Assembly: GCA_008632985.1 (NCBI GenBank)
Contig: QPGO01000165.1
Span: forward strand, 62,001 to 126,000
Direction of reading: 5' to 3'
DNA from: Psammoneis japonica
Taxonomy: Eukaryota
Length of the DNA stretch: 64,000 nucleotides
Below are positions 1-64,000 of the stretch, piece after piece. The notes under the pieces are model-generated. The model searched no databases, was not told where the DNA came from, and saw nothing but the letters and a program-made list of their open reading frames with translations. The stretch's first letter is position 1, and every line of letters begins with the position of its first letter. Position numbers and translations under genes: made by a program.

Positions 1-3000
1 TGTTCTCAGCACATTTGGCGAGGACATCCTTGGCGTCGGCATCTGCAACTTGTTTGGTAGAGAACGTGATCGGAGACTCAGGAATGTCAAGACATTCAAC
101 AAATTTGAAGCCCGTTCGCGGCTTGTCGGAGCCAATTTCACCTTGCTCCTTGTCAGCAGATGCCACACCACCCAAGAGAGCACGTTCCATGTCCTTTTCT
201 GTCTCTGGAATGAAGGAATGGAAAATGGGCTCCTTGCCGTTGTTTTTGTCTCCTTCGTAGAATGAGCGCTCATCACAGCATCTGTCCGTCATGAAAACGA
301 TCGGGCCTTTAAAACCGTGCATTTGGTGCCGTCGGTTAAGGCCACACAGGCTGTCCTCCACTTCCAACAGGGTTGTCCCTGTGACAAGTCAGAACAGCAA
401 TGTCTGTCCAAACTCATTCATTGCCGAGCACAGACCAACGAAACCTCTTGCATTCTCAATCAGAACGACCTTTCCAATTTTGATAAAATGGTCCCCGGAC
501 AGGAACAGACCACCATTCATTTTCATTTTGTGGCGACAGCAAGGAATGTTGGATTCAATTTCTGATGTTGTTGCTTCCAACAGACAGGCCAGGGATGGCA
601 CTTGCATTTCCGCACGCTCGTCATCAAAGTCAAAATGTGAAGTTCGATTTTCGATGCGACTCTCTTTCCCAACCGAATTGCAAGCAAAATCAACATGTCC
701 TCGCCACATCTTTGCCTTCATGGCATGTGTTTGCTTGTGTCTCTTGGTCAGTGACTTCACAAACCCAAGCCCACTCATGCCGTGCGATGGCTCGGATCTC
801 ATCTTGTCAATGAGCGTCCATTTGATGGCGCCTTTAGATGCAATTTTGTGTCCATTTTGCCGCCACCAACCTTGAACATGCTTGGGTGATTGTGACAATG
901 CTGCAGAGTCACAGCCATAGAATGTGCAGCTCTCCCTGTCATGTGTGCCGTGATTCTCCTTCTGCATTTGCGTGCACATGTGCCGATGCCCGACAAGAGC
1001 TTCATTTTGATGCTCCCCGTGTGCACGCCTGGCACAATCTGAATGTCCAAGATGACTGACACATTCAGTTTCCCCAGGATGAAAAGGGCAGCAGGGCCTG
1101 CATTCTGGCCAACAAAGTGACCGCCAACAATCCTCTGGCCCAAAAAAATGACAGGCGGCACTGCAAACTCCTCGCGACAGAGCGGCGTGCCATGCTCTTC
1201 TTCCGCATTTTCATGCCCTGAACCAAAAGGAAAGTTGTTCACTGGATCAGAAGACAAATTGACCATTGAAGAGCCAAACATTTGAGGCCAGCTTCCACAT
1301 GGCTCGTGCTTGCCGTTCGGCTTGAACCCAACACACTTCTTGAGATGCTCCGACAACTTGTCGCATGCTTTTGAGGTGCATGAAGTGAAAGAGCCCTTCA
1401 AAGTGCCATCTTCCACAAGGTCATTCTTGTCTTGACGTGAAGCCTTTGATGCTCTGTTGGAAGTGCGAGTTTCTGCTGCCCTCTTTCCACGACGACTCCC
1501 AGCAGCAGCTGCAGTGTTAACCGTGCGATTCTTCTCCTGCTCGGCTGTTTTCTTTGCCGCATTCATCATTCTTGCCACTGCATTTTCTGCCAACCGTTTG
1601 TTCCTTCTCATGGCTTCATTTCTTGCAGAACATGGGTCAACCACTGTGGGATTAGAGCCTTGATTCATGATGCATGCGGCACACTACAAGCATGCGTTTG
1701 ATGTTGTCGCGTTAAAAAAAAAGCCGACACATCAAAAGTTCAGAATGTGGATGGAAAACAAATTCATTTGTGCATTCATTGCCTGCATTTGTCCAACGAC
1801 ATTCAAGCGCAAACTGACAGCAATTCTAATTCACTGTTGACATTTCTGTGTTGCTCTGAATTTGAAATCACACCCCTGTTCATTTGGCTTTTTTTGCGTC
1901 AAAGTGGAAATGACACTTGACGATTTACACCATTCATTTGGCTCACTTTGGCTCGAAGTTGAACAATGCTTTTGGGTCATGGGCTTGTCATTGTTCAGCC
2001 ACGATCATGAAGTCTTTGCCGATTTTTCGAATTTTTGCCGAACTGCATGCAGGAAGTCCGCGATCTTTTTTCTGTGCCGATTTTCCGCCACGTGTCACTC
2101 CCATCAACAAAGGCACCTGTGACAAGGTGATGCTCCAGACTTTGCTGACCTTGTGCAGAGTCAGTCACAGTTCTTCAACCCACAAGCATTGGTGGAGTGA
2201 GTGCCTGCAGTGTCCCCAAGCACGACACACACACATGGCTTTCTCGCAAAAAAGAAACCAGCTCAACGTGGGCCCGCCGCTGCGCGCCACTCTTGCCACC
2301 CTGCTGCAATGGCAAGCCCACATCAGCCATGGGACAGACTCACCTGTGCATTTGTGGGGGGAGAGGGGTGGAGCTGAGCCGACATGCACTGCTCCTCTCT
2401 TTTTGTTCTGCCAGATGTGAGCTTGGGCAAGACTCCTTGCCAAGCACACGCCCTTTGCCTCCAAGAGGCTGCATGGCACAACAGCACTTGCACTCTAATG
2501 GGAAGCAAGCACTGCTTTTTTGTGTGTGTGTGAGAGAGAGAGAGTTCATGGGGCCTCCTGGCGCGTGAGCTGGGGGGGCAAAGGCGGACATTCCTGAGAG
2601 ACAATGGGGGTTTTGAGCTGGGGACACAATTTCCATGTGACATGCGAGTGTGCACAAAATGCCATGCATTCATTGCAGCTCTTTGATTGGGGAGAGGACA
2701 AAGCTTCTTCTTTGTGGTTCGGAGCACTCTCTGTCTCTCCCTCTCTCTCTCCTTTTTCCAGAAACAGAGGCTTTTGCACATTTCCAGCAAAAGGGTGGGC
2801 CGCGCCACTTTCCTTTTTTAATTAACTCACAGGTCTCAAACAGGGAATCAATTGATCACCTGTTGTGTGTTGCAAGCTCAAAAAGAGGGGATGGGCGGAA
2901 CAGACATGCATGCATGTGGGGGGTGCTCACACAATGCAGGTGGGCGATGCATGCACCGCATTTGCTGTTCGGAACTTTCGTCTTTAGGTTGTCGTGCTTT

Positions 3001-3059
3001 CTTGAAATTTCTGTCTCACGGGTTCGCGCTCACGCGCCGCGTCGCGTTCTGCGTTGTGC

Positions 3060-3148
3060 TGTGAGCGGCATTCGCGCGGACTTTTGGGGTGGAACGCACA
3101 ACCACAAAAAATCTGCAGAAAAAGCAAAAACATCCTGTCTTGCTGAGC
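3060..3148 (+). repeat. Left TIR (TA-mutated copy)
   Basis: tgtgagcggcattcgcgcggac...; matches the reverse complement of the right TIR, with TA->TG/CA changes at the tip. Confidence 0.85.
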
Positions 3149-3240
3149 CTCCGCCCGACAGCGACGCCATGATGAAAACTCCACTCTGTGACCCATTCAT
3201 CTTGTTGCAGTTCCTGATTGGACCTCTTTCATTGTTCAAC

Positions 3241-5829
3241 ATGGGAGGGAAAAACTTGTCACCTTGCTTGAGACCTTCAAAAGAGTTCGCACACAGTCTC
3301 AAGAAGCTGCGAGAAAGCTTCTCCGAATCGCAGGCTGCAAATCCTGTTGCTGCAGTCGATGCATCCACGCGGGAAGTCAAGGCACTGAAAACAACAGATG
3401 CTGTTAACGAGTTTCACATGGAGCCTCCTGTTCCAGTTGAGAAGGTTCGTGAGTGCGTCATCGCCCTCATCCAAGCCTTCCTTGCAGCAAAGTTTCAGTT
3501 GATGTTTGCATTTGATGGCAACCGGCATCCAATGAAGGCAAACGAAAGAGCACGGAGACAGAAAAAACTCAATGAAGCCCAGGCAGATTTAGATGGGGTG
3601 CACAAAGGGGAGCTTGTGTTGGCGTGGAAAGAGATCCACAAGCTTTGGAAAGAACTGACGCATCCACGGGAGGACGCACATCACGTTGTGCTTCAAGTTG
3701 CCGAAGAGCACAAGATCCCAGTCGTCGGAGCCCCCTTTGAGGCAGATTAACAGCTGGTCTCCCTTGCAAGGCAAAAGGTTGTAGATTTTGTTGTCACAGA
3801 AGACAGTGACATCCCAACTTGTGGGGCGCTGTCTACGATTTCACGTTTGTCAAAAAATGGAAAGTGTTGTTTGGCGGACCTTCAGGAGACCTTGGAGCGC
3901 AGCCTTCCAAAGAAGTTGGGCATTCGTTCTCGCTCAACTTCAAGTGATCTCCAAGCAATGTCTTGCTTTGGAGGGAATGATTTCATTGACAGCAAGGATG
4001 GTGTCGGACCGAAGTCCGTTGAGAAGATGATGCGTGAATGGGTTAAACTCGATGACCTTGAGAAGCATGAGTTCCTTTGGGAGATCGCTGATGGTGACGA
4101 TGAATTCCATCACAGGTGGATGACGTCAATGACACTTCTGGGACATGGTCCAGCATCTCACATTGTCCCCGATGACAGTCAACGTGATCCACGTTCTGCT
4201 TTGCGGGAGCAAAAGCATTCTCTCAAACTTGCGTGTGTGAATTGCTCTGCTGTTGGTGCCAATTGTTGGGCATGGGGAAATGGCGACAAAGACTTGCCAT
4301 TCATCGGGTTTGACCCCAACGATCAGCTTCAGTCGGGATGGCACGAATCTGCACTTGCCAACAAAGATGCAGATGTCTTGTGCAAAGATCTTTTCATGAT
4401 GAAGAAATGGGCTCGTACGGGTTGCTCTGTGCGGGGCATCGAACGTAAAACAAATGATGAGGGATGCGAGCTGCTTCCTGGAAGCTGTGTCAATTTTCAA
4501 AAACTTCCTGCACACCTTGTTCCAACTGAAGCATTGATGTTTTGGCTCGCAGTGCGTGGAATAAAGAAGTCATGTGATGGCAGAAAAGATGTGGTGAAGG
4601 AGGTGCAGAAGGTGCTCTCGAGGCGGCCAGCACCTCCGCCGCTCCCTGCAATGCTGATGTGAGGTGGTGGAGGACATGTTGCATTCAAAGTTCTTGCTCC
4701 AAAGCGTGGTGCTGATGCCAGTTCTGTGCAATGGGAGACAGGCGATGATGCACTGAAGACCATTTGCAGCTGGATGGTTCCTCAGATTGATGACGCATGC
4801 CATTTGTCTGAGTTCGGCAAATGCAATTCCTCACGCATCCGAGCTCTGAACCATCTGAAAGGCGGCTCCTTGAATTTGTTGTCACTGAAGTGCACTCGAG
4901 AGCTTGGAGATAACCTTGGTCAAGAGAAGGAACTCCTTGTGATCCATGCGGTTTGCGCACCATCCGTTAAAACTTCGAAGAGCCAAAATCTCATGCACGC
5001 AGTCCGCCTTGTCATCACACTGGATGAGAAAAACAGAACTTCGAAATTGCTTCCATTTCCATGCAGCAATTGTGGCTGCCCCAATGGAGCGGGACCATGT
5101 GCCCACAGGGGCTGCTTCACACTCCTGCTGCATGTCATTCAAACCAAGTCGGCAGAGTGGGATTGTGACAAGATTAAGGACATGCTCCCAAGCCCGATTA
5201 AGTCAGTCCAAGATCTCCTGATTCCTGTCTCTTTTGCATGCCCAAGGAGAGCCAGTGTTGGTGCCGAGGTGGATCGCTCCGAGCGTGCCGAGCTGAAAAA
5301 CTACAAGGCAGAGAAGCGTCATGCAAGCGGCGAGAATCCACCAGAATCAGAAGAAGACGAGCTTGCAGTTCCAGTCAACAATTTTGACATGTCCACGAGT
5401 GATGCGGAAAGCAACGATGAAGGTCAAGAAGAATCAAAAGAGGAAGATGTGGAGGAGGAAGATTGGAAAAATGATGCACCACATGATGCACTCCCTGGCA
5501 GCGCACCAGATGCATCTTTGAAGCCACCAATTAAGGTTTGCGATGAAGTCGACATGTGGCCAGCAGAGCTTCAGCTTCATTTTGACAAAACCGGCTGTTC
5601 CACTCGACACAAAGAAAATCAAATCGTGGATGAAGCATCGAAACGAGCAAGACAAAATGATGACGAAGCATTTGAGAAACGTCAGCTGTTGCGTTTGCAA
5701 CGATTCCATGGCATCGTTAAGAAGGGTGAGTTTTGACCGAGCATGTTGAGTCTCTTCTGTAAGCTGCAGCTCCCTGAGATCGAGGCGAAACTTGAAGAGT
5801 TGGAAAATGCAGATGCTGGCAGTTTGTGA
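3241..5829 (+). pseudogene. XPG/FEN1/Exo1-family nuclease fused to SAP-like and SWIM zinc-finger domains (TE accessory ORF; stops and frameshifts)
   Basis: XPG-type motifs: MGGKNL start, AVDAS, FAFDG, APFEAD*QL and H3TH-like GGNDF..DGVGPKS. SAP-like LMFWLAVRGI..K (~4530-4620). SWIM-like CGCPNGAGPCAH (~5070-5106). Confidence 0.8.
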
Positions 5830-5903
5830 AAACGCAAATGACCAGAGCGGAGAGGCGAAAAACACGAGAAGAAGACAAAAAAATAGCAGCACTGTTCCAA
5901 CAT

Positions 5904-6690
5904 TTATTTGGACTTGAAGTCAAACTTAAAGCAGTCGCAGTGCTTTGCAGGCACCTGGAGAGGACGACACAGATTTGCGCGGCCATGACCCCATGCAACG
6001 AGGTCTTCAAAGCATGCAAACTTTTCATGCTTGATCAATCCGTACAGCATCCTGCGGGTTGTCACACGTGAGCACACAGTTTCACATGTGTGTCATAGCT
6101 GACATGCCTTTGCATTCCATTGAATCTGTTTGGGACTGAATTGAACACATCCACAGAGGAATGCAGGGGTCAACATTGTGTTGTGGTTCGGGCAGCTTCC
6201 TGAGGTCCCTGCAAATCCCTTGTCAGCCAAGATGAGCGTCTCAATTGGTGTGTTTCCTAGATGGTGTCTACCCCACAGTTCGACAAGGGCCTTCTCACTC
6301 CCTTTTGCTAAGAGTGGGCAGGTGCACTCAAAAACCAGCCCCATCGGTGTGCTCCATGTGATGACTCGAAATGCGGAGTGCTCAACCTTAGAGCTGCACC
6401 CTGCAGAGCTTGCAACCTTGTCCTTCCCATCTGTTTTGGTGGTAAAATCCTTGCCGTCAGCCACTGCAGCCACATTCTTGAGCCCCAGTCGTTTGTGCGA
6501 TGCTGGTTCTGTCTCGGATGAGAACTCCTCGCGCGCGCGAGCTCTTGGAACGCCTTCGTGAGCTCGGTGCACTCTTTTGAGCCGCAGATGCAGTTATACT
6601 GTTGCTTCTTTTTCCCAGGAGTAAATGGGAATCGTATGGAATACGATGGAAACGACATGGTGCCGTGACGGCATCTCTCGTTGCCGACAT
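5904..6690 (-). pseudogene. Harbinger/ISL2EU-type DDE transposase, internally deleted
   Basis: DGKDF...SSKVEHSAFRVITWSTPMGLVFE...SEKALV...ILADKGF...CQL*HTCETV.SRV...ANL.RPL. An N-terminal Cys segment (YNCICGSKEC) is joined directly to the DDE core at ~6530, implying a deletion. Confidence 0.75.
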
Positions 6691-6716
6691 GAGGGCGTCA
6701 TGGTTAGCGCAACGGA

Positions 6717-6805
6717 GCTCAGCAAAACAGATGTTTTTGCTTTGGCTGCAGATTTTCTTGCGGTTGCGCGTTCCACCCCAAAAGTCCGCGCGAATACCGC
6801 TTATA
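6717..6805 (-). repeat. Right TIR (unmutated copy), ending 41 bp upstream of the MRS2 ATG
   Basis: ...ccccaaaagtccgcgcgaataccgcttata retains its TA dinucleotides. Confidence 0.85.
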
Positions 6806-6846
6806 TTATTTTTTTGTTCTCATTCATTCTCAATTCGTTCTCGACC

Positions 6847-8430
6847 ATGGCGCTCCGACAAAGCGCCCGCCTCGGAACTAGGTTTCACAGTCGTCTATTA
6901 GCTACTTCCTTAGATTCATTGAGTCTCCCATACAGAGATTCAAGGAAAACACGAGAGAATCGGAAGAACTATCTGTTTTCCAGTAGCGACGGCACCTTTC
7001 GTACTTTTGCCTCGTTCGCCTTTCCTCGAAACGGTGCGAAACAAAACTCCAAAGAGAAGAAAAATGAGGATCCTTACAAGAACGAAATGTCTTGGTTTAA
7101 TGTTTCCAAAGTGACGGTCGACGGCGACGTCTCGTTCATGTGTTCTCGGGCTTCGGAACTTTTGCGTGAGGCTGGGTCGTCGATTTATGCACGTGACTTG
7201 TACTCGTTGGCATTGACGACGCGGCGACAAGACGGATTTTCTTCTTCGCGTGGCTCGTTTCGTCGCCGCCCTTTGTTTGCAATATTACCTCGAGGAAGTG
7301 AAATTCTAATCAGTTTTGGATACATTCGCGCAGTCATTGGAACAGAATCCGCCATGCTGTTTGATGCACAACACCACACGGTCAAGCAGTTTGTAACGGA
7401 CATTGCGCAAACGGTCGTTTCAACGCACAAGGAAGACGATGTCTCGGCAGTTGGATTGGATCTTTCAGAGGATTTTTCAGAGGAAGAAAAGCCCCCCTTT
7501 GAGCTGGTCTTTATTGAAGAAGTTCTTCGTGGGACCTGCGATGCGTACAACCGCCGGATACATCTCTATCAACCGATTGTCGATAGCATGCTGAATCGAG
7601 TTTCGAACGAGGTGTTCTCCGATGCAGGAGTTCATCAGCTTGTCCCAGTCAAAGATTCACTACAAAAGTTTGAAATGCAAGTCAAGCAGGGGTTGGACTG
7701 TTTGAGAGATTTGCTAGAAAGTGACGAAGACATGCTCAAGCTGCTGCTCCAAGAACAACAGGTGGCAAAGGAGAGGGGAGAGACTGTCAGACATGAACGC
7801 CATCAAGGAGTGGAGCTCATGTTGGAAGATTACCTAAGGCAACTCAGCAACATTCTATTTGAAATCCAGTATCTTTTGCAGCGACTACAGAGCAAGCAGG
7901 AGTTTGTCTCGCTTGCTCTGGATGGATATCGAAATCGGCTCATTCGGATGAATGCCTATCTGGGAATTTTCGGTCTCGGTATTGGCGTCGGCACAACCGT
8001 TGCGGGTTTCTTTGGAATGAACGTGATTTCTGGCTACGAACAGTCCACTACCGCTTTTAACAGTGTTGTCATGGGAACGAGCATTGTAGCTGTTGTCATC
8101 TTGATGGTTTGCTCTAATTACATTAGTGGAACAGGAATGAAGCAGCGTGCTGCGGAGCGGCTTGACAAGCTTGACACGATTAGTTCTGCACTGAGTGACA
8201 TGAGTGCTCTTGATTACGTGGTTAAGGAAATGATGGAACAACAGTCAGGTCTCACGAAGGAGGAATTTCGAGAGAAGCTTCAGGCGGTACGGTCTAGACC
8301 AGTGACGGACAAGGAGGTTGAACTGTTGTTTCATTCACTCGACGTCAGCGGGGATGGAGTCTTGTTCTCCGAAGACTTACAACCTTTCAAAAAGTTAATC
8401 AAGAGTCAGAGAGATGAGGCGGGATTTTGA
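6847..8430 (+). CDS. MRS2: MRS2/CorA-family magnesium transporter, probably mitochondrial, with C-terminal EF-hand-like loop
   Basis: Intact ORF with normal Tyr/TA content. MRS2 motifs: ARDL, PFELVFIE, VELMLEDY, LDGYRNRLI, and a GMN signature (FFGMNV) between two hydrophobic helices. Arg/Ser/Leu-rich N-terminus from ATG 6847; DVSGDGVLFSEDL near the C-terminus. Confidence 0.92.
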   Translation: MALRQSARLGTRFHSRLLATSLDSLSLPYRDSRKTRENRKNYLFSSSDGTFRTFASFAFPRNGAKQNSKEKKNEDPYKNEMSWFNVSKVTVDGDVSFMCSRASELLREAGSSIYARDLYSLALTTRRQDGFSSSRGSFRRRPLFAILPRGSEILISFGYIRAVIGTESAMLFDAQHHTVKQFVTDIAQTVVSTHKEDDVSAVGLDLSEDFSEEEKPPFELVFIEEVLRGTCDAYNRRIHLYQPIVDSMLNRVSNEVFSDAGVHQLVPVKDSLQKFEMQVKQGLDCLRDLLESDEDMLKLLLQEQQVAKERGETVRHERHQGVELMLEDYLRQLSNILFEIQYLLQRLQSKQEFVSLALDGYRNRLIRMNAYLGIFGLGIGVGTTVAGFFGMNVISGYEQSTTAFNSVVMGTSIVAVVILMVCSNYISGTGMKQRAAERLDKLDTISSALSDMSALDYVVKEMMEQQSGLTKEEFREKLQAVRSRPVTDKEVELLFHSLDVSGDGVLFSEDLQPFKKLIKSQRDEAGF

Positions 8431-8690
8431 TGTAGCTGCTGACCCTGTTTCGTCAAGCCGAGAAACTAATCCGTGACAAATTTCGGCGGAAAATGTTATT
8501 ATGCTATCTACCACCGAATACCGTACGGGGTGGGAATTTTCGTGTTCTGAATACATTGTTGATTTTTCAAGCTGCTTCCTAACTTGATTCTGGGCGAAAG
8601 CTCCACGGACAGTCAACGGGCATGGTCAAACATTTACAGTGCTCGGCGGTAAATTTTAATTGTCACCATTAGAAGGTTTAATACTCCGAG

Positions 8691-8975
8691 TAGTTTTTTC
8701 TTCAGAGTTGCAAGAATGCAGTGTAGAGTGAAATGGTCACTTACCCGTAGAAACGAACATTTGAACTTTTGGAAAGGAAACGACTCATAAGCTTCAACAG
8801 TTCGGCAAGGAGTGAAGTACAAAAAGGGGGTTAATAGTTTTTCAGCAGAGTTTCGAGAATGCAGTAGAGTGAAATGATCACTTACCCGTAGGAACGAACA
8901 TTTGAACTTTTGGAAAGGAAACTATTCATAAGCTTCAACAGTTCGGCAAGGAGTGAAGTGCAAAAAGGGGGGTTA
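8691..8975 (+). repeat. Tandem duplication, 2 x ~143 bp
   Basis: Two near-identical copies of ...gagtgaaatg.tcacttacccgtag.aacgaacatttgaacttttggaaaggaaa...gcttcaacagttcggcaaggagtgaagt.caaaaaggggg. Confidence 0.9.
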
Positions 8976-9639
8976 TTCCGCTCGCCCGCTGAGCTACAGG
9001 CTGCTTGGTTGGATGCGAACCAACGACTTGATCCTTCGATGGAGATATTGAATTGAATTTCAAATTGCTGTTTGTATGATTGTGATAATACTTCTAGCTA
9101 CTAGAGGCAGATTGGGAGAAGACTCCAGCCAGCTGTTGGCTGAAAAAAGTCTGCTCGTCAGTGCGTTTGGGGGTTTTGCCAGTAGAATTTTTCCGTTGAG
9201 ATTCTCTGTTTAAAAATTGTCAGTAGACGTAAAAAATGGCGTGAGTCAGCATGAGCCCGCCAGTTCATTTTCTCAAGACTAAGATTGTTCTCTACGTCAT
9301 GCTTAAGGATAAAATTTTACACACCATATTCAGCATGATGAAATTTAATTTACTCCATAGTAAAGAAATTTTGTCATCCAATGCTGCATGCTTTCTGTAC
9401 AGTAAAATGAGCGAGGAAAAATCATCATGTCTGAACTTGGTCCAGAACGTTATTTTTTCCGTTGAAATTCTCTATTTAAAAATTTTAAATAGACAAAAAA
9501 TGGCGGGATTTTGGCGGAGTGAACAGACCCAAACCCGTTCGCGCGCCTCATGTTTTTAGTAGACCATATAAAATGCATGTGTTGCTGGAGAAGTGATTCT
9601 CATTTCTATTATTGTCATTATCCTTCAGCCACTTTCATC

Positions 9640-10950
9640 ATGGCTCACCGTCGCTACAATGATGCCGCCAAGCAAGACGACTCGACGTTGGCCTTTGATT
9701 TGTTGGCGCATGCAAATAGCAGCCAAATGTCCGATGTCTTTCTCGTGTCGAGCGACGGGGATCAAGTTCCCGCGTCGCGCTTTGTGCTAGGGGCTCGATC
9801 GCCCGTGTTGCAGCAGCTCCTGTGTTCGAATCCGAAAATCAAACTGCCCTACAGCGGCTGTGTGGTGCGCGCCATGGTGGAATTCTGTGGAACCAACGAC
9901 ATTGTCGATTTTGTGCGTACAGCGACCCGCGATATGGATTCAGTACGGGAAGTAGTGCACTTGTACGATTGCGCACGTGCCTATTCGCTTAGAAAACTGC
10001 AAGAATTGGCCTGTGACATGGTCACAATGGTCCTTTGGGATGAGGGTAGCAACACGAAGCTTTGTTGGGCGTGTGCCATTTTGGATGAGGTTGTAGCGAA
10101 CGGCAAAGACGAAACCATGACTATGCGGCGCCTCGTATTGGATGCCATTCGATCGGATCCAGAATGTGCCTTGCTGCGTCAGACACAAGATTTTCAACCC
10201 CCGGGTGTATTGTGCCTGGACTCGACATCGCTAGAGCTCGTTGTGTCGGACAAGCTCATGAATTGCGAGGAAGTCACCTTGTTTAAAGCGATTCAAAGCT
10301 GGTCCAACCGTTCCCAGTCTTCGACTGGCCATCGATATGCTCCGAAAGACAAGAAGCGACAAGCCTCTGCCAAAGCTTTAATGGCAACGGCTATTGACTT
10401 GTCTCGTATCGCGCCGTCGGACCTTTGTGGGCTTGTAACTCAATCCGGCCTAGTCCCTCAAGCGGCAATCTGGGACGCACTCAAGGAAACAGCCCTTCGG
10501 ACGGAGCGCAATCAAGAAGTTCCCACCTCAAGGTTCCGCAACGACGACGCACCAGCAACGCGGGTCCTTCTGCTGGCGCACGAATCCAAACGACTTGAGG
10601 AAGAACTTACAGGAAAAGCATACAGCACACCTCAAAGACGCCCCCACAAGGGATCTAAACCAAGTCCTAGGGACGTTTTCAATCCGTTCGACGATTCCTC
10701 CATTGTGGCAACCGAAGTCACGCCTTCGCCTAGACGCCGCCGTCGCCACTCCAGCAAATCGCCAAAAACATCGACTGAAGAGGCGCCGAAGACGGATGAT
10801 GCCTTAATCGTTGAGGATGGCTCGCGCAGCAAGTCGGATAGCGCTGCTCAAGAATCGCCCGAAAAAGTAAAGGGCAAGCTCATCACCTTGGCGGAGCAAC
10901 TCGACGCCCTTTGTGTGTGTGGATCGGAGCCACACAGGATCGACCAGTGA
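9640..10950 (+). CDS. BTB/POZ + BACK domain protein
   Basis: BTB-like SDVFLVSSDGDQVPASRFVLGARSPVLQQLL, BACK-like EEVTLFKAIQSW and IDLSRIAPSDL, then a low-complexity tail. Intact, normal TA content. The start at 9640 is inferred. Confidence 0.85.
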   Translation: MAHRRYNDAAKQDDSTLAFDLLAHANSSQMSDVFLVSSDGDQVPASRFVLGARSPVLQQLLCSNPKIKLPYSGCVVRAMVEFCGTNDIVDFVRTATRDMDSVREVVHLYDCARAYSLRKLQELACDMVTMVLWDEGSNTKLCWACAILDEVVANGKDETMTMRRLVLDAIRSDPECALLRQTQDFQPPGVLCLDSTSLELVVSDKLMNCEEVTLFKAIQSWSNRSQSSTGHRYAPKDKKRQASAKALMATAIDLSRIAPSDLCGLVTQSGLVPQAAIWDALKETALRTERNQEVPTSRFRNDDAPATRVLLLAHESKRLEEELTGKAYSTPQRRPHKGSKPSPRDVFNPFDDSSIVATEVTPSPRRRRRHSSKSPKTSTEEAPKTDDALIVEDGSRSKSDSAAQESPEKVKGKLITLAEQLDALCVCGSEPHRIDQ

Positions 10951-11070
10951 AGACGCGCGAGTTCTACTTGTCGTTGGGCAGAGTGACTGTCGGTCTGGAT
11001 TTTCTTTGGTTTACAGTTCTTCTTGCACCGCATGTGCCAAGTCACTAACTTCTCGTGAGACGGTTGGGGT

Positions 11071-11094
11071 TCTCTCTCTCTCTCTCTCTCTCTC
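11071..11094. repeat. (TC)12 microsatellite
   Basis: Seen directly in the sequence. Confidence 0.9.
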
Positions 11095-53915: not shown

Positions 53916-54540
53916 ATGAAGAACGTTGGAGCCTTTGTTGTTGCTGCTGCTCTGGCAGTCTTTTACACTGCCGCCATGTGGGACAATCCTCAGGGTGGTG
54001 TTGACAAAGCGTCCTTGTGCAATTTCTGCTCCAGCCAACAATGCCAAAGCCTGCAGCAGGACACTGATCATGAGGATGAGTGGGGACCTCTTGTTGGACA
54101 CTGGAAAGGCACTCTAGGTCGTGTGCCACCCAGTTTAGAGTTGCGCATCATCACTCATGTCTTGCTCATTTTCGGACAAGTCCTTGAGTGCAATCTTGAT
54201 CAGGGAGGTCAGTTCATCCCCACCATGGCAATGTGGTTCAATCCAGACACCAATGAGAATCATTTCTTTGTTGGCACCATCAATGGTGTGTGCACTGGAA
54301 AGCTTGATGATGCGACTGGAAATGTGATGACGGGAACATGGAAGAGACATGGCAGAAGCATGTCTCTAGATTGTGGTTGTTGCAATGTGCCCAACAAGGA
54401 GATGAGCATTCCTCACGAGGTTCAGTTTGCAGCAGAAAAAGCAGTGACAGGAGATCCAGACACAATTGTTGGAATGGAAGGCTGTTCCACCTGGATGATG
54501 ATGACTGCAACCAAGATGCACCATGTCCTCCACTGTTGGT
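53916..54540 (+). pseudogene. Decayed secreted/membrane-anchored protein, 5' part (continues at 61658-61906)
   Basis: Hydrophobic N-terminus; WKGTL...LDQGG..IP...TGKLD...MTGTW, repeated after the Copia as ...LPVPI...FQGTLDEKSMTGTV. Confidence 0.45.
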
Positions 54541-54816
54541 TGACAGGATTTGAACAGGATTTGGATGCGCGCGAAGCATCGCGCGCTGTTTGGTTTGCCG
54601 CACACAGTTTTGTGTGCTTTAGTTCCGCGCGTTCACGCGCGATGTAGTTTGCTTTCGAGCCACAAGGCTCACAAGAATGACAACAGCAGCCCGATTGTGC
54701 CGACTCACACGTCTTTCGGCTCCTGCAACGGTCTCTGAGCGGAGACTCATCTGCCATTTAGATAGCAGTAAGGAGTCATTGTTTGAATTCTTGCCATTTG
54801 CCTTCAATTTCTGTCA
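54541..54816 (+). repeat. Copia-2 5' LTR (276 bp)
   Basis: Matches 61371-61657. Confidence 0.95.
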
Positions 54817-55755
54817 GATTAACAGTCTTGCTCATTGTCAACCCATTGAGCAACCGCCATCGTCGTCGTTGATTTACCAACGACGCTATTTCAATTCTAC
54901 GTGGACCTCCGTATATGTTCTACATACATCGGCAAGTCTACGCGCATTCAACACCAGGGCATCGGCAGGAAGTTAACGTCACCGTCAAGTCTCCTTACCG
55001 CTGGATATCTGGATTGATTATACTACCTTTGATCGCTGAAGACATACATTCAACGGTCATGTCCAAGTCCATCCTTGATCCTCATCCCTTGACATGCCCA
55101 TTCATCGGTTAACGGTCAAGAACCCCACATGTTCAAGGATCTTCGTCGCTAAAGACACATGTGCACATGCATGTCTTCACGGCCAAGAACCTGTACCCAC
55201 TCTTCGGACTGCGGTTTTGCTGCCACTCCACAAGCACACCGAGTCCATTGCACCTGATCTGCCCCGGACTGCTGGTGCTCTGCAGTTCTGCCAGGTCCAC
55301 GAGGACGACTGTGAGAGCAAGCAGCCGTGATTGCAGCCTGCGTTGGGGCGAGGGTGCTTTCCCGCGTTTGTTCGTTCGTCCACAGCGCCTGACGCCTGCG
55401 TCAACTGGCCAGCCTGATCGGGAAATCCAACCGACACAAAATAAGAACGGTTCGGGGGTCTTGTCCACCTCCAGTCAGCTTGCCTGCAGGGGTTTACAAC
55501 CCGCCACTCCGCTCGCAAGCAACCCAAAGCACCACCAGCTGCGGGTTCGGACGTGCTGGCACAACTCTACGGTCCGGATGGGAAGTTTAGCACTTGACAA
55601 CGAACGGGATGACAAAGCCCGGCGACTTCTGATTTTAAGACAGTTCAAGATTTCAAGTCAAGTCCATTTCAAGTCAAGTCCATTCTCACCCAAGTTTCGA
55701 GTCTACCTTCGCTTCCCAACCAGAATTGATTGTCCTGACACCACTTTTGTCTACC

Positions 55756-58700
55756 GTGGTTCTCACTCGTCAGCAACAAACCGATGGTTTCGAGCACGTT
55801 GTTGGAACCGTGCTTGCCCAAGGTGCTGGGAGTCCTCTTCGTTTGGCTTTGGCCCAAGACGGCACGGACTCGCATCAGGAACTGTTCACGTTCACACCGC
55901 CCCAAATCGACTCGCTTGAGTGCGACAACGGCACCAATGCAATCCCTTTGCCCCGTGGTTATAAGAACATGTTAGCAGCACCAGTTGGCCTGCACATTGT
56001 CAAAGCACACAAAGGTCTTGACGTTGCCAACGACTCCTCTTTGTTCGCGCATGACGAGTTCCTTGCCTGCCGCCTCAGCCCGGACTGCATGTCCTCTCTG
56101 TCCATCGGCAGCTCACCCCTTGCACCTCCACATGTCACCAACCCGACCAAGGCACGCGACCCGGTGCGAGACTTCAAGCAAGGCATCAAGCGTGATCCCA
56201 CCGCTTTCATGGCTCTCAAATCCGACAAGCAGTGGCACACTTGGCACACCTCACTTGTGGCACAAGCCCGTGCCCAAGACGTCGAGTGCATTCTAGACTC
56301 GTCGTACAAACCGACCAGCCCCGAAGACAAACTGCTCTTTGCTGAACAGCAAAAGCACATGTTCGCCGTCTTCGAACGCATCCTTCTCACCGACAAGGGC
56401 AAGGCTCTCATTCGCGAAAATGTGGGGTCCTCTGACGCACAGACCGTCTGCCGCTCCTTGTCTGAACACGCGCTTGCCTCCACCCGTGCATCTGTCGAGT
56501 CATCCACCCTGCTCACGTGCCTCACCACCGCACGTCTTGGTGATGGCACTTGGAAAGGTCCGACCCACGGGTTCATCCTTCATTGGCAAGATCAGTTGCG
56601 CAAGTGCGAGGCACTCATCCCCGCCAGCGACCACTTCTCTGAAGGACAGAAGCGCGTCATGCTCGAGAATGCCGTGCACCCTGTCGAGGAACTCCGTGCT
56701 GTCAAGAACCAAGCTGATCAGCATCGCACGCAGAGTGGCAAGAGCCTCACATGCGATCAATGCTGTGGCTTGCTCCTCTCCGTGGCAGCTCAGTGCGACA
56801 GCACGTTTCAACCCAAGACGACACCTCGAGCTCCCCGACGCGCCATGTGCGCACACGACGTCCACTCCGAGGAACCGTCCGACGATGTGTTCTACGACAT
56901 TGACAGCGACGTTGACGTCCTTCAAGCCAATGCTGCCTGCACCCGTGGTCCCAGCCTCACCGGTGTCCAATGGAGACGTCTCCCTCCCGACCACCAACGG
57001 CTCTGGGATTCGTTGCCCGATTCCTCCAAGGCGATCATCCTTGAGCACTCTCGTCCGCCTCCCCGCAACCCGCGAGCCAGCAACTGCCATGAGTCTGTTG
57101 CGGCCAACCTTCACGACCAACACCTTGGGAGTGACGGTGATGTCAACTTGTCCAACACGACTCCTGCTGACTGTGGTGACTCCGCTGCACATGTGGACGC
57201 CATTTCGGACAATCCTGTCCTGGCGCACCTCACCAAGCGCAAGCCACTGCCACCCGGTGATCTGCAACGTCTGTTGTCTCCTAACCAAGCCCCAATGCCA
57301 GTCGACCGGGGCCATCCGCCGCTTCCTCTACCCCGCCAGCTTCTGCAGATGACACAGAACTTAACGGCCGCACTCACCGCCGCGTCAACAACCACAATGT
57401 CATTTGCTCTGCCTCTGCTCATCGCTCCACACGCACTGGCGCTCTAGTCAATCGTGGGGCCAACGGCGGCATTGCTGGCGACGACGTCCACGTCATCGCA
57501 CGCACCTCTCGCCAAGTCGACGTTCAGGGCATTGACGATCATCAATTGGTGGACATCCCCATTGTCACCGCTGGTGCCGTCATTGAGACCCAGCGTGGTC
57601 CCGTCATCGCCATCCTCCATCAGTGCGCATGCACGGGAAAGGGCAAGACCATCCATTCCTGCGGCCAGCTCGAATGGCACAAACAGGATGTCAACGATCG
57701 CTCTGTCAAGGTGCCCAACGGCTTGCAACGCATTGCCACTCCTGATGGCTGTGTCATCCCCATTGACATCAAGGCTGGCCTGCCTTGTGTTGCCATGCTT
57801 CCTTACACTGACGCCGAATGGGACACCCTGCCCCACGTCATCCTCACCGGTGATGACACATGGGACCCTTCCGTCCTCGATCACTCTGTCACTGACGATG
57901 ACCAGTGGTACGACGCGATCTCTGACCTGCAGGACGATCCCACTGCCAACCTGTTTGACGAATGCGGCAACTACCGTCACCGTGTCGTTGTCAACGAGAC
58001 CATCTTGTCCGCTTCCTTGTCTGCCGATCACGCGTCCGCCCTCGATGATCACCTCATTCCGAACGACGACGTGTTCTACGAGTGTCATCTGCATGCGATT
58101 GACCCCAAGGGCGATGACGTTCCACCTCCGGAGCGCACTGTACAGCCCAAGGACCCCCCCTTCGAGTCTCTTCGGCCTTGCTTTGGCTTCCTACCTGCCG
58201 ATGCGGTCCGTCGTACTTTTGACTGCACCACGCAGTGCGCCCGCATGCCCGCCGGTGCACACCTTCGCAAGGCCTTCAAATCACCCAACCCCGCCCTTAA
58301 TGTGCACCGTCGCAACGAGCCTGTCGCCACTGACACCGTTTGTGCCGACACCCCGGCCGTCGACTCTGGTTGCACCAGCGCCCAACTGTTTGTTGGCACC
58401 GAGTCTACCGTCACTGACGTCTGCGGCACTAGACGGACAAAGAGTTTGTCAACACACTCGAGGATCAGATCCGTGAACGTGGTGCCCCATCCAAACTCAT
58501 TAGCGACCGTGCTCAAGTTGAGATCAGCAACAAAGTGCTCGGGATCCTACGCGCCCTCTTCATCTCCAGCTGGCAAAGTGAGCCTCACCAGCAACACCAA
58601 AACTTTGCCGAGCGTCGACACCAGACTGTGAAGCGCATGGCGAACACTGTCATGGACCGTTTTGGTTCGCCCGCCCACACATGGCTGCTGGCGCTCATGT

Positions 58701-61297
58701 GCGTGTGCTTCACACTCAACCATGCAGCGTCCCCACGTCTCCACTGGCGCACGCCCCTCGAGACTCTCACTGGATCCACCCCGGACATCAGCCCATTGCT
58801 TCGCTTTCACTGGTGGGAACCAGTGCACTTCCACCTCGATGACTCCGATTGGCCGTCCGAATCTCGTGAGTTGCGTGGACGCTTCGTTGGCATTGCTGAG
58901 CACGTCGGCCACCAGATGACCTTCAAGATTCTATCTGACGAGACTCAGAAGATCCTCTGCCGGTCCAACGTTCGCTCCGCCACCCCCGATCCTGCCGTTC
59001 GAAACCTGCGTCTTGATCCTCCTGATGGGGAGCCACCTGAACCCATCATCAAATCTCGCCATGACGACAACCCCGTCGATTCTCCTGATGGGGAGATCAG
59101 GACACCCAAGATGCCAGTTTTCGATCCGCAAGACATCATTGGACGTACCTTCCTCATGCAGCCACAAGAGGACGGACAACGCCACAGAGCTCGTGTCGTC
59201 AAGGCCGTCGAAGACCACGAATGGAAAGTGAACGGCAATCCCGAGCTCACTAAGTTCGTCTGCTCTGTCAACAATGACGAATACGAGGAAGTCCTTGCCT
59301 GCAATGACATCATGAATCACATTGAGCAAGAAGACGAAGACACCACTGTTTGGAAATTTCGACGCATCGTGTCACACGAAGGCCCTCTGAAGCCTCACGA
59401 CCCAACCTGGAAAGGCTCAAGCTACAACATCATGCTTGAATGGGAAAGTGGGGAGATCACGTCCGAGCCTCTTGCCATCATCGCCAAGGACGACCCCGTC
59501 ACCTGTGCCATCTATGCACGAGAGAACGGACTCCTCGACACGGATGGATGGAAGCGGTTCCGCACCATCGCGAGGCGCCAAAAGAAGCCATTTCGCATGG
59601 CCAACCAAGCCAAGCTTCGCTCCTTCCGCACTGCACCTCGCTACAAGTACGGATACGAAGTTCCCCGGAACTACAAACACGCCATGTCACTGGACGAACG
59701 CAACGGCAACCGCAAGTGGGGAGACGCAACTAATCTCGAGATGGACCAACTCGACGAATACGAAGTCTTCCATGACTGCGGGCCCTTCAAGTCTTCCACT
59801 CCTCCTGCGGGACACAAGAAGATCCGAGTGCACCTGGTGTGCGACGTGAAACACGACGGTCGCCACAAGGCACGACTCGTAGCCGACGGGCACCTCACGG
59901 ACGTACCTGTCGACAGTGTCTACTCCGGAGCAGTCTCCCTTCGTGGCCTTCGGCTGATGATTTTCCTGGCCGAACTCAACGAGCTGGAGACATGGGCCAC
60001 CGACATTGGCAATGCCCACCTTGAAGCCACCACCAAGGAGAAGCTTTACATTGTAGCTGGACCCGAATTTGGCAAACTCGAAGGACACATCCTTGTCATC
60101 CACAAGGCACTGTATGGACTCCGCAGCTCCGGTCTCCGCTGGCACGAGCGCTTCGCCGACTGCCTGCGAGCTGAAGGCTTCTTCCCCTGCCGCGCCGAAC
60201 CCGACATTTGGATGCGCAGGAACGGCGACCACTATGAACACATTGCCGTTTATGTGGATGACCTCGCCATTGCCATGAAGGACCCTCAATCTTTCGTCGA
60301 CACTCTCACGGAAAAGTGCAAGTTCAAGCTCAAGGGTGCGGGACCCATTGAGTTCCATCTGGGTTGCGACTTTTCCCGGGACCCCGACGGAACCTTGTGC
60401 CTGTCTCCGCGCAAGTACATCGAGCGCATGGTCGACAGCTACGCCCGACTGTTTGGGGAGAAACCCACCACCAACGCCCTGTCACCTCTAGAGAAGGGTG
60501 ACCACCCCGAACTGGACACTTCCGAACTGCTGGGACCCGATGGCATTCACAAGTTCCAGTCTCTTGTTGGTTCACTCCAATGGGCAGTGTCCCTTGGTCG
60601 AATTGACATTACCACGGCCGTCATGTCACTCTCTAGCTTCCGAGCTGCGCCCCGTCAAGGCCACTTGGATCGTGCCAAACGCGTCTGTGGGTGCCTCTCC
60701 AAGATGCGACACGGTGCTCTCCGCGTTCGCACGGAAGAGCCCGACTGTTCGGATCTCCCTGCTCCGGCCTACGAATGGATGCATTCCGTGTATGGTGAAG
60801 CAGAAGAGATGATCCCGAAGGACGCTCCACCGCCCCTTGGCAAGTTCGTCACTACCACCCACTACGTCGATGCAAACTTGTACCATTGCATGCTCACCGG
60901 GCGCTCTGTCATGGGAATGCTCCACTTCCTCAACAAATTCCCGGCTGATTGGTTCTCCAAGAAACAAGCCACCGTGGAGACTGCAACCTACGGATCTGAA
61001 TTTGTTGCCGCAAGGAATTGTGTTGAGCAGATTATCGACCTGCGCATCACCCTGCGCTACCTTGGCGTCCCGATCCGTAATGTCAGTTACATGTTCGGTG
61101 ACAACAAGTCGGTTGTAGACAGTGCCACCATCCCGCACTCCAAGTTGCACAAGCGACACACTGCACTGTCGTTCCACCGTGTGCGTGAGGCAATTGCCTC
61201 TGGTTGCCTTGAGTTCCACTTCATCGAAGGCTCCCGCAACCCTGCTGACATTCTCAGCAAGCATTGGGGTTGCTCCCAAATCTGGGACCTTCTCTGA
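55756..61297 (+). pseudogene. Copia-2 gag-pol (frameshifts near 57.3 kb and 58.43 kb; late stop)
   Basis: Gag FKQGIKRD; protease NRGANGG (DRGANGG); integrase VATDTV..SEPHQQHQNFAERR; RT KHDGRHKARLVADG and IAVYVDD; RNase H YVDA..ETATYGSEF..GDN..NPADILSK. The start is probably ATG->GTG at 55756. Confidence 0.93.
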
Positions 61298-61370
61298 CCC
61301 CTCATGTTCTGGAACTTCATTCCATCCGAAGTCGAATCTGTTTCTGTGGCTCCTCAAGCAAACTGGGGAG

Positions 61371-61657
61371 TGACAGGATTTGAACAGGATTTGAACAGGA
61401 TTTGGATGCGCGCGAAGCATCGCGCGCTGTTCAGTTTACCGCGCACAGTTTTGTGTGCTTTAGTTCCGCGCGTTCACGCGCGACGCAGTTTGCTTTCGAG
61501 CCACAAGGCTCACAAGAATAACAACAGCAGCCCGATTGTGCCAACTTGCACGTCTTTCGGCTCCTGCAACGGTCTCTGAGCGGAGACTCATCTGCTGTTT
61601 AGACAGCAGCAAGGAGTTGTTGTTTGAATTCTTGCCATTTGCCTTCAATTTCTGTCA
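61371..61657 (+). repeat. Copia-2 3' LTR (287 bp; extra 11-bp tandem unit)
   Basis: Matches 54541-54816. Confidence 0.95.
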
Positions 61658-62797
61658 TTGGTTGTTGTTCAAATGGACAAGTCAGATGGCAATGTTGTGG
61701 AACCAAAGCTGTTTCTTCCTGATCTGAGTTGCCTGCCTGTGCCAATTCAGTCCTTTTTGATTGATGTTGGTGACAATGTCAAAATCATGCATGATGGCAG
61801 TGACTCAATTTTTCAAGGCACACTGGATGAAAAGTCAATGACTGGCACTGTCAACTGTGACAGCGCAGATGCAGCATTGGGCCTTGACCTTGTTGTGGAG
61901 CAATGATCATCCTAAACATGTGTTGGCAAAACAGTTTCCGAAGGAAATTGTCAACTTAGCAACAACAATCTTGTCACACTGTGCTGTGAACGGAGGTCAA
62001 TCTTGCCACTGCGTGGAATCACACTGCAAGTGGAGCTCACATCCTTGACTGGCAGATGTGTTTAGACCAATGGGCTTGACAAACTGAGAACAAAGTCAAG
62101 AAATGCTCAAAGGACTGTTGCTGATTGGCTGATGAAGAAGCTGACATGCTGGATGCCACACACAACCCTCACATCATTTTCTCATCTGAAAACCCGTGTG
62201 CACAAAGCCTCTTGTGCCAGCAAAGAAACACATGAGGATGCCCTTGCGGCTTGTGCACAACTTGAGGACACCTGGGAATGGAGACAAAAGGATTTTCTTG
62301 TGGTGGATGGATGCAGTTGAGCAAAAACAATTGGGGCCCTGGCAAGTGCAAAGATGACTCAAACAGAAGGTTTTCATGTGTGCTGGCAAATGTGTGGGAT
62401 GACAAACAAAACAGCACCAATTGGTGAGAGCAACAATGTCTGGCATGCATGTGAAGACAGACAACTCAAAGTTTGCTGTTTGTTTGAAACAAAGCCAAAG
62501 CAATGGTTTCACCCTCCTGGAACAAACCAATCATGTTGCTTTCTTTCTCTTCCGGCCAAAGAAAAATCCTGCAAAACCTGCAAACTTCAGGACAGGACAT
62601 TTTGACAAAAAACGTCAAGGGACACTCAATGACTTTTCTTGCATTTTTGATTCAAATTGACTGGCAAGTTTGGAATCATGTGGAACCCACATGTGAATTT
62701 GTGGTGTGTTCAATCCAACTGTGTGCCTCCTGAGCTGAAACCGACTGCATCACAAGATGCGCTAAAAACAACAAACACAAAAAATTAATTGCACACC

Positions 62798-63817
62798 ATG
62801 TCGTCTTCAAGTGATGGCAATGCCAATGGCACCAACCATGTGCCACCAACACAAGACAGTCATGCTGATTGCATGCCTTGTGATGAGGACATGGGGCTTG
62901 TGCCAACCCCTCACCTCCTCAATCAAAGGCTGTTCTTGTCCCTCCATGTTTGTGATTGCAAAGAACTGTTGACAGAAGAAAAGCTGCTTGTGGGTGCAAG
63001 CATCATGTCAACGAAGGTGTCCAGCCTCAGAGCTCTTTTCCAAAAGTGCAAGCATGTTTGCAATGACAACCCCACACCCAAAAACCTTTCCACCTCAGGC
63101 AATTCTGGTGACTTGAAGAAACATCTGATGATGTGGTTCTGCGTCTTCCGGCAGGAAGGAGCACGCATTGAAAAGTGCCCCTTCAGCACTTCCAAGAACT
63201 GGAGCCAGACAGAAGATTCACACATTGTTGAGACACTTGGTGACCCTTCCTTCCAAAAACCCCTCCAGCACCTTCACCAAAAGGCTCCACATGTTGTGCT
63301 GGAGGAGGGCAACCCACCCCTTGTGGCTGTGTGCCAACAGTTCACAGTGGTTCTGTGCAACAATTTTGACAAGTGCAAACCAACATGCAGGTTTCAAGAT
63401 GACCCACTGCTGAAGGTGTTTGATCCCAATGACAAGACAATTGCTTTCCATGCTCCAGATGTCATCAAATTGAGGGTTGGCCAGCTTGGAAGCAGACTGA
63501 CAGTGGTGCACAAGCTTGGCACAAAAAGTGGCTTGGACCCAGAAGGTTTTGAAAATGCACTTGATCTGACAGATCCGCTGGACCAATCAACTCTCTGTTG
63601 GTGGAAGTCAATTGACAGCCATGGTGATTCATCTGTTCTCAACAAGTTTGTGCGCCTTCTTCCAGCTGGGTCAGGTGTGGATGCCTCGGATCCCAGCACC
63701 ATCGAACACAGCCTGAAAGCTGCCAACTCCATCTTGCGCAGCATGTGCAAGGGTGACAGCTCCTCCAGCAAGCCCAAAGTGTGTCTGAAAAAGTCCTCAA
63801 GGTGGTCAATGAGTTGA
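62798..63817 (+). pseudogene. Decayed ORF of unknown function
   Basis: A 340-codon frame with protein-like composition but no Tyr and excess Cys/His; no family recognised. Confidence 0.4.
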
Positions 63818-64000
63818 AAAGTGACATGATGGACAAGGTCAACAAAGAGAACATGTTTTTCTTGCAGCAGAATCAAGACCATGCCCAGGACAAGGTGGAG
63901 TGACTGGGCAACAAGATTCCAGCCATGATGCATGAAAAGGTTGACAACTTCAAAAAGCACAAGAGAAAGATCAAGCAGTGCAAAAAAGCCTGCAGTGAGC

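Follow-up and report, generated by a model that had tools for sequence, protein, structure and literature searches.

A 64,000-nucleotide stretch of the genome of the diatom Psammoneis japonica (GenBank contig QPGO01000165.1, positions 62,001 to 126,000 of the forward strand; hereafter the window, numbered from its first base) has lost most of its TpA dinucleotides. The window holds 569 TpA steps against about 4,200 expected from the base counts, an observed/expected ratio (o/e) of 0.14, and both TG (o/e 1.66) and CA (o/e 1.63) are in excess. We consider it probable (about 0.8) that this is the product of an in-place, TpA-directed process changing A:T to G:C, which would be carried out by an adenine deaminase acting on silent or foreign chromatin, similar to what has been described for Bigelowiella natans and with an effect resembling that of fungal repeat-induced point mutation (RIP). 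The direction of the change, its restriction to TpA, its action after insertion, its occurrence on both strands and its regional confinement are shown by the sequence; a function in genome defense and a targeting to silenced chromatin are inferred.

Extent and Borders of TpA Loss

When the window is divided into 500-bp bins, 106 of the 128 have a TA o/e below 0.25. The remaining 22 bins lie in a gene island (10 bins), in an element with terminal inverted repeats (TIRs; 4 bins) and in the younger of two Copia retrotransposons (8 bins). At positions 1–6500 the TA o/e is 0.107 and the CG o/e is 0.63; the values are 0.064 and 0.27 at 11251–33272, 0.051 and 0.27 at 34656–54542, and 0.03 (5 TpA observed, 166 expected) and 0.16 in the tract at 61658–64000 that flanks the younger Copia. 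The gene island (6501–11250, + strand) has a TA o/e of 0.50 and a CG o/e of 1.09, the TIR element (33273–34655) has 0.83 and 1.18, and the younger Copia (54543–61657, + strand) has 0.27 and 0.95. An earlier reading of this DNA, referred to here as the original prediction, had described a near-absence of TA, a richness in TG and CA, and sharp edges, and these values bear it out.

Most borders are abrupt. To the right of the gene island there is a TpA at 11330 and the next one is at 12799, so that 11331–12798 is free of TpA. On the right side of the TIR element the last TpA (34628) lies inside the element and the next is found at 36031, leaving 34629–36030 without any; outside the element, TpA first recurs at 33164 on one side and 36031 on the other. 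A more gradual border is found to the left of the gene island, at about 5500–6600. The distance from the end of a mutated tract to an active gene is in the range of tens to hundreds of bases.

Transposons and pseudogenes had been predicted as the targets. This holds for the two Copia elements and for the remnants of a fucoxanthin-chlorophyll a/c protein (FCP) gene and a DUF7733 gene, but only about 12.6 kb is recognizable as transposon, and the other depleted DNA consists of gene remnants or is unannotated. Scans of 30 and then 149 open reading frames (ORFs) gave no Pfam match for most of the depleted DNA, and no viral genes were seen among these 30 + 149 ORFs.

The loss of TpA has a strong effect on stop codons. 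In 41.9 kb of depleted DNA there are 72 TAA, 54 TAG and 1066 TGA stops. Because TAA and TAG have been mutated away, 178 stretches of the window, counted on both strands, run for at least 110 codons without a stop; many overlap, and the majority cannot be genes. Gene prediction in tracts of this kind would yield too many genes.

TG and CA occur in balance throughout the window. The TpA steps that survive in the depleted tracts show a clear dependence on context. The surviving fraction is 0.0016 for ATAT, 0.0023 for ATAC/GTAT, 0.048 for CTAA/TTAG and 0.057 for TTAA, and survival at TTAA and CTAA/TTAG is thus 20–35 times that at ATAT and ATAC/GTAT. In the islands, the residual fraction is flat across contexts (0.19–0.31). 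A pyrimidine stands 5' of 78% of the surviving TpA in depleted tracts, compared with 42% in unmutated relatives, and in the half-mutated younger Copia 13% of the survivors have a 5' A, compared with 28% in its relatives. The survivors in the younger Copia suggest that ATA/TAT is hit fastest, although the excess of YTA among the survivors of the old tracts could alternatively come from new C-to-T changes at YCA.

Direction and Timing of the Change in the Younger Copia

The younger Copia is a long terminal repeat (LTR) retrotransposon with LTRs at 54543–54816 and 61384–61657 and a polyprotein at about 55756–61333. About three-quarters of its TpA is gone, and its CpG is intact. The two LTRs are 94% identical, and the 16 positions at which they differ over 274 aligned columns resolve into 12 events: five of TA against TG or CA, three of CG against TG or CA, and four doubles in which TG stands against CA. 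No transversions and no other transitions are present in these 274 columns. The one-sided TpA changes run in both directions, with TG against TA twice and CA against TA three times. Such a double of TG against CA is the trace expected where a single ancestral palindromic step was hit twice, independently and on opposite strands. Since the LTRs were identical at insertion and now differ in the TpA-type classes, the change acts after insertion.

Two TpA steps are shared between the LTRs and five are one-sided, and there are about 20 CpG per LTR. At least 7 TpA were present in the ancestral LTR, of which each copy now keeps 4 or 5. By our estimate, about 55% of the TpA and about 7% of the CpG of each LTR have disappeared since insertion, with several hundred other positions unchanged; from the LTR counts, the rate at TpA would be about 10 times that at CpG and at least about 100 times that at other sites. 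Dating by LTR divergence would be badly wrong in such tracts.

The direction of the change was polarized by aligning 120 full-length metagenome Copia polyproteins of 60–73% identity to the younger Copia with tblastn, using columns in which 60 or more homologues were present and 80% or more of them agreed. At 36 columns with a conserved Tyr, the younger Copia keeps the Tyr in 16 and reads Cys in 13, His in 3, Phe in 3 and Trp in 1. Among the other conserved columns, 39 of 641 have changed. At second codon positions, A-to-G changes are found at 13 of 36 sites after T, 4 of 52 after A, 1 of 82 after G and 0 of 45 after C, and the comparison of T with all other 5' bases (13/36 versus 5/179) gives a Fisher p value of 4.8e-8. 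T-to-C changes at first positions occur at 3 of 36 sites before A and at none of the 29, 28 and 34 sites before T, G and C, respectively. In the polarized spectrum, TpA thus stands far above the other A contexts, an outcome on which the original prediction depended.

The near-absence of A-to-G changes after C and after G rules out a general bias from A:T to G:C. GC-biased gene conversion acts on such pairs independently of their neighbors, whereas A-to-G change here depends on a 5' T. The relatives of the element were also compared in composition. Among 79 related metagenome Copia loci, TA o/e ranges from 0.31 to 1.02, so that the younger Copia at 0.27 lies below all of them; only 1 of 775 1-kb windows of these loci has a TA o/e below 0.3, and the closest relative, with 73% protein identity, has 0.84. 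Because the relatives are not TA-poor, the depletion was not inherited from the family, a possibility against which the original prediction had wanted its reading checked. The relative with the lowest TpA (L074, a metagenome contig of 2759 bases) has a TA o/e of 0.31, a TG/CA o/e of 1.42 and a CG o/e of 0.76, and may represent a mild form of this process in a different organism.

We see next to no probability that the depletion stems from a composition that was inherited, from selection against TA or from GC-biased gene conversion. A mild under-representation of TpA is common to most genomes, and even the gene island has an o/e of 0.50, but the range among the relatives and the fall of LTR TpA from at least 7 to 4 or 5 are not explained in this way. 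The affected sequences are moreover dead: there is an in-frame stop at 36523, and a catalytic Arg reads Cys in the FCP remnant.

The changed Tyr residues of the younger Copia are unevenly divided between Cys and His (13 versus 3; two-sided binomial about 0.02), and the ten changed Tyr that come first in the element all read Cys. Such a skew would suit A-to-I editing of UA sites in the retrotransposon RNA by an ADAR- or ADAT-like enzyme before integration, with the edits fixed by reverse transcription. Editing of this type would, however, act on the sense strand and on retroelements only. Here the differences between the LTRs run both ways. A host-type pseudogene and unannotated DNA outside retroelements show the same degree of depletion, neither TG nor CA prevails in the window as a whole, and TG/CA alternatives occur within the same sample in non-retroelement DNA. 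RNA editing as the main cause is already contradicted by these observations, and we give it very little probability. A comparison of strand bias between the younger Copia and its relatives is confounded by the higher G+C content of the former.

The depletion varies along the younger Copia. The leader at 54817–55150 (~330 bp) keeps normal TpA, with 14 in 54751–55000, and the 3.5 kb that follow have 0–4 TpA per 250 bp. Depletion is weaker in the 3' half than in the 5' half; before 58.7 kb, 10 of 12 conserved Tyr columns no longer read Tyr, and beyond it the number is 10 of 24.

The Same Change in Gene Remnants and Older Repeats

The replacement of Tyr extends to sequences other than the younger Copia. 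At about 36268–36975 (+ strand) there is a host-type pseudogene of the DUF7733 family, which is not a transposon and carries an in-frame TGA at 36523. All five of its conserved Tyr residues have changed, four to Cys and one to His, and a conserved Arg also reads Cys. In the old Copia (about 40002–45474, with gag_pre-integrase at 42186–42692 and RVT_2 at 43878–44597), all four conserved Tyr columns have changed, two to Cys and two to His; in this case the homologues are distant and the remaining columns are noisy. The predicted conversion of conserved Tyr to Cys or His is therefore seen in 16 of 36 columns of the younger Copia, 4 of 4 of the old Copia and 5 of 5 of the DUF7733 remnant.

The FCP pseudogene at 16718–17122 (− strand; Pfam 4.6e-9) finds its best Protein Data Bank matches in diatom FCPs, down to 2.8e-21, and Cys stands in place of two conserved Arg residues in its two helix motifs. 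At about 48300–49710 there is a tandem array in a decayed state, with ~178-bp units that are 70–94% alike. Two unit pairs of this array contain 13 and 7 doubles of TG against CA, in addition to ordinary changes.

A Second, Slower Process at CpG

Over about 44 kb of the window the CG o/e is 0.16–0.27. An ordinary decay of CpG to TpG or CpA, slower than the change at TpA, is superimposed on the latter and accounts for part of the TG/CA excess. The TpA process of the original prediction stands, but the CpG decay over ~44 kb had not been separated from it. CpG is moderately lost at 1–6500 (0.63) and intact in the younger Copia (0.95), so the two processes are separable. Traces of the CpG component are the three LTR events at CG and the Arg-to-Cys changes in the FCP and DUF7733 remnants.

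Deamination of 5-methylcytosine (5mC) at CpG yields the same TpG and CpA products and is present in the TpA-depleted tracts. It cannot remove TpA, however. Its rate here is about a tenth of that of the TpA process, and in both 1–6500 and the younger Copia the two are uncoupled. The original argument that neither RIP, nor 5mC deamination, nor GC-biased conversion can produce a loss of TpA is upheld.

CpG and TpA are the two self-complementary pyrimidine-purine steps, and both decay in the same tracts. This invites the idea that symmetric epigenetic marks of silent DNA, 5mC at CpG and N6-methyladenine (6mA) at TpA, both deaminate to give TG and CA. The parallel is a formal one. In the LTR pair, TpA is lost about 10 times faster than CpG, nothing in the window points to 6mA, and eukaryotic 6mA is known from ApT or VATB rather than from TpA. 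We regard this explanation as quite improbable.

The combination of TpA loss and CpG decay over about 44 kb might also arise from error-prone patch repair, in which mismatch or base-excision repair in methylated DNA would involve a Pol-eta-like polymerase that misinserts G opposite T at WA sites, a course known from phase II of antibody hypermutation. TpA is the strongest Pol-eta hotspot, and in the younger Copia A-to-G change is, next to TpA, most often found after A (4/52). Pol-eta spectra are, however, rich in A-to-T and A-to-C changes. None of the 12 LTR events is a transversion, and at the conserved Tyr columns there are 16 changes to Cys or His, 3 to Phe and none to Ser. In the younger Copia, the loss of TpA is far advanced with CpG intact (CG o/e 0.95). 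Transitions make up 230 of the 231 mutations in B. natans (bioRxiv 10.64898/2026.01.13.699255). Error-prone repair is thus an improbable source of the pattern. The changes are almost purely transitions, and for this reason deamination fits better than polymerase error; of the effectors that had been proposed, an adenine deaminase remains the leading guess and a Pol-eta-like polymerase fits poorly.

Comparison with Sequencing Reads

Three sequencing runs (X1–X3), all from one sample (S1) and with the library type unrecorded, were available as Logan contigs. Run X1 holds 73% of the 31-mers sampled from 5001–15000, and it covers all 30 bins of 1–20000 with a word depth of mostly 50–80. Compared with the window at 1–20000, the X1 contigs have another letter at 193 places, of which 154 are transitions. 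The classes of event given below rest on the 40 differences listed out of 196, 35 of which fall in 1–6500. Among those listed for 1–6500 there are 25 events: 10 of TG against CA, 9 of CG against TG or CA, 3 of TA against TG or CA, and 3 others. Over the 40 differences listed, one turns TG to TA and one turns TA to TG. The five listed for the gene island are of a different kind, comprising three transversions, one CpG-type change and one other transition.

At 3230–3234 the window reads CA..TG and an X1 contig reads TG..CA. Strand-specific misreading would give TG..TG or CA..CA, so these variants are real and come from independently mutated molecules. The X1 variants are alleles or close copies, and the sample varies from site to site in the choice between TG and CA. 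Likewise, the TG/CA alternatives between the window and the contigs are independent events.

The reads bear on whether a base-calling or assembly error, or a modified base, makes a true TA look like TG or CA. All runs come from one sample, perhaps the assembly's own, and exist as contigs only, which leaves such an artifact some room. Nevertheless, the independent k-mer assembly of the reads contains 73% of the sampled words and all 30 bins, and of the 40 differences listed one turns TG to TA and one TA to TG, with 3230–3234 resolved oppositely in the two assemblies. Moreover, the pattern follows the borders of elements and genes to within tens of bases, and TA partly survives in the younger element. 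An artifact is therefore very improbable. The original prediction would have been undermined by reads that carry TA where the assembly has TG or CA; as far as this can be followed in read-derived contigs, TA is not restored.

Islands That Retain TpA

The TIR element at 33273–34655 (1.38 kb) is a recent, non-autonomous element. Its 58-bp terminal inverted repeats are identical at 55 of 58 positions, and one of the three mismatches is CA against TA. A perfect 28-bp subterminal repeat is present in two copies at 33330–33385. TpA and CpG are both normal within the element, despite its fully depleted surroundings. It is flanked on both sides by TGA, which may be a 3-bp target duplication made in DNA that was already free of TA. 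The original prediction had recognized this segment as a young insertion of normal composition at 33278–34650; the normal island is confirmed, and its limits are corrected to those of the TIR element.

The gene island contains the ORF of an MRS2-like Mg2+ transporter (6625–8430; Pfam PF22099, 1.1e-23) and a BTB-domain ORF (9550–10950; PF00651, 4e-7). Between them, at 8695–8971, lies a tandem repeat of two 141-bp units. The word depth of this repeat in X1 is 1031, compared with about 60 nearby, and it is therefore a high-copy sequence in the genome. It nevertheless keeps normal TpA, with 11–16 per 250 bp. The two copies serve as a control pair: they differ by four transversions, three other transitions and only two events of the TA, CG or TG/CA classes. 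As a repeat of depth 1031 is unmutated in the gene island, the targeting does not look purely repeat-driven. The depleted tracts have the word depth of single-copy DNA, though this is possibly a consequence of mutation.

Comparison with Bigelowiella natans and Other Systems

The original prediction was not aware of an earlier description of such a process, but the same signature has been reported in B. natans. Mettrop et al. studied mutation-accumulation lines of this alga that carry two integrated viral regions (bioRxiv 10.64898/2026.01.13.699255). In the viral regions, 230 of 231 mutations are A to G or T to C, and all the GC-biased ones are located at TpA. Mutation proceeds there at about 6e-7 per site and generation, which exceeds the background by a factor of 1000, and it occurred in only 11 of the 15 lines, which makes it episodic. 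The B. natans genome contains 124 clusters of 1-kb windows that are poor in TpA and rich in CpA and TpG; reverse-transcriptase and DDE-endonuclease domains are over-represented among coding sequences poor in TpA, and most of the affected ORFs are unannotated. An ADAT2-like deaminase is proposed by the authors as a candidate (10.64898/2026.01.13.699255).

The window resembles the B. natans regions in several respects. The changes are almost exclusively A-to-G and T-to-C transitions, they share the restriction to TpA (A to G in 13 of 36 sites after T; T to C in 3 of 36 before A), and they are regionally confined, with about half of the LTR TpA lost and no changes at the other non-CpG sites. The differences are also clear. 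B. natans is a chlorarachniophyte, and hence a rhizarian, in which the targets are integrated DNA of nucleocytoplasmic large DNA viruses (NCLDVs) and virophages, whereas the present case is a stramenopile. The targets here are two Copia elements, FCP, DUF7733 and HAD-type remnants and much unannotated DNA, and a young TIR element is spared. Depletion reaches an o/e of 0.03–0.11 over tens of kilobases, compared with 0.45 in the NCLDV insert of B. natans. CpG decay accompanies the loss of TpA here, and the words "CpG," "diatom" and "stramenopile" are absent from the preprint's text. Finally, the B. natans mutations were seen de novo, whereas those in the window are deduced from standing sequence alone.

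The window thus appears to be a second case of the phenomenon reported in 2026, independent of the first, far more extreme and in a different major lineage. A full-text literature search gave no report of a TpA-erasing signature in diatoms, and none of the terms of the signature is present in a second preprint on phytoplankton mutation (10.64898/2026.07.24.739820). Near-saturation in a diatom suggests either a widespread, old means by which protists disarm silent or selfish DNA, or two origins.

The RIP of ascomycetes resembles the process in the window in being a regional, dinucleotide-biased set of transitions that introduces missense and nonsense changes in transposons and makes copies diverge beyond matching. 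The chemistry is the opposite one: RIP changes C to T at CpA and creates TpA, whereas A changes to G here and TpA is destroyed. RIP is also triggered by duplication, and the high-copy repeat in the gene island is unmutated.

Proposed Mechanism

In the model that we favor, an in-place chromosomal process would turn TpA into TpG or CpA by changing A to G on either strand. It would be near completion over roughly 50 kb of silent DNA, including dead Copia elements, host pseudogenes and unannotated DNA, and would have left the two genes and the recently inserted TIR element untouched. The agent would be an enzyme that deaminates adenine 3' of T in DNA, giving inosine, which is read as G. Silent or foreign chromatin would be the target of such an enzyme, and it would be active in episodes, with the consequence that repeats are inactivated and diversified, an effect like that of RIP by opposite chemistry.

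Deaminases of the TadA/ADAT2–ADAT3 and ADAR types have the appropriate activity, as their A-to-I chemistry would read as A to G. Their natural targets have a U 5' of the edited A, as in U33–A34 of tRNA and in the 5'-U preference of ADAR. No adenosine deaminase gene of the TadA, ADAT or ADAR type is present in the window, in agreement with the original statement that the effector is not encoded there. These are RNA enzymes, with the exception of a report of DNA editing by amphioxus ADAT2 (PMC10354150).

The same outcome could come from the other base of the pair. If the thymine of TpA in silent DNA were oxidized or otherwise modified, for example to 5-hydroxymethyluracil (5hmU) or 5-formyluracil (5fU) by a TET/JBP-type enzyme, mispairing with G would lead to T-to-C changes. 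Pure transitions, a palindromic target and hits on both strands would then be found in double-stranded DNA exactly as with adenine deamination. 5-Formyluracil does pair with G, and some protists hold much 5hmU at TpA. No thymine hydroxylase is found among the 30 + 149 ORFs scanned, and the window is otherwise silent on this idea. The B. natans authors favor adenine deamination, by proposal only. A thymine-directed lesion is in our view unlikely.

Several points weigh against the deaminase model as stated. Adenine deamination and a thymine-directed lesion have the same sequence outcome and would be inseparable by that means. The 13:3 ratio of Cys to His in the younger Copia hints at a strand bias or at some RNA editing before insertion. 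The sample behind the sequencing runs is possibly the source of the assembly itself, and contigs hide allele fractions and platform. Both the TIR element and the Copia leader retain TpA within a depleted domain, which is awkward for a steady, domain-wide action. Since these two are unmutated within depleted DNA, episodic action or targeting on a finer scale is needed.

It is possible, although we put it forward only tentatively, that a TpA-specific DNA adenine deaminase steered by silent chromatin is an old arm of defense of stramenopiles and rhizarians, and perhaps of the whole SAR group (stramenopiles, alveolates and rhizarians). If so, its action would be saturated in this diatom, with one of the sixteen dinucleotides erased from most of the non-genic DNA. 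Repeats would be made unique, and the system would be a functional mirror image of RIP and a natural A-to-G editor of double-stranded DNA. A natural chromosomal enzyme that changes A to G at a defined dinucleotide would be of interest to base-editing research, and some diatoms are transformable, so that it could become findable. In practical terms, repeats that have diverged in this way escape repeat finders and k-mer depth.

Genes and Minor Features

The nearest named homologues of the MRS2-like ORF are all from diatoms (among them Attheya, Ditylum, Odontella, Epithemia and Cyclotella), with a best identity of 57%, and the database searched thus contains no near relative of this diatom. Together with the diatom FCPs matched by the pseudogene, this agrees with the assignment to a diatom that the original prediction had made. 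Contigs of run X2, the run type of which is unrecorded, lie on both ORFs of the gene island and also on 18363–18401. They cover 7037–8680 and 9590–11052 without gaps, and no intron shows up there. A search of the window gave no protein copies of the MRS2-like and BTB genes elsewhere in it.

Two further Pfam remnants are located in the depleted tracts, a weak XPG_I match at 3751–4659 and a HAD_SAK_2 match at 24950–25447. A 90-bp copy of part of the neighboring gene is found at 3064–3153; beyond this copy and the XPG_I match, the tract at 1–6500 carries no annotation. The copy differs from the gene by one change of TA to CA and two of CG to CA.

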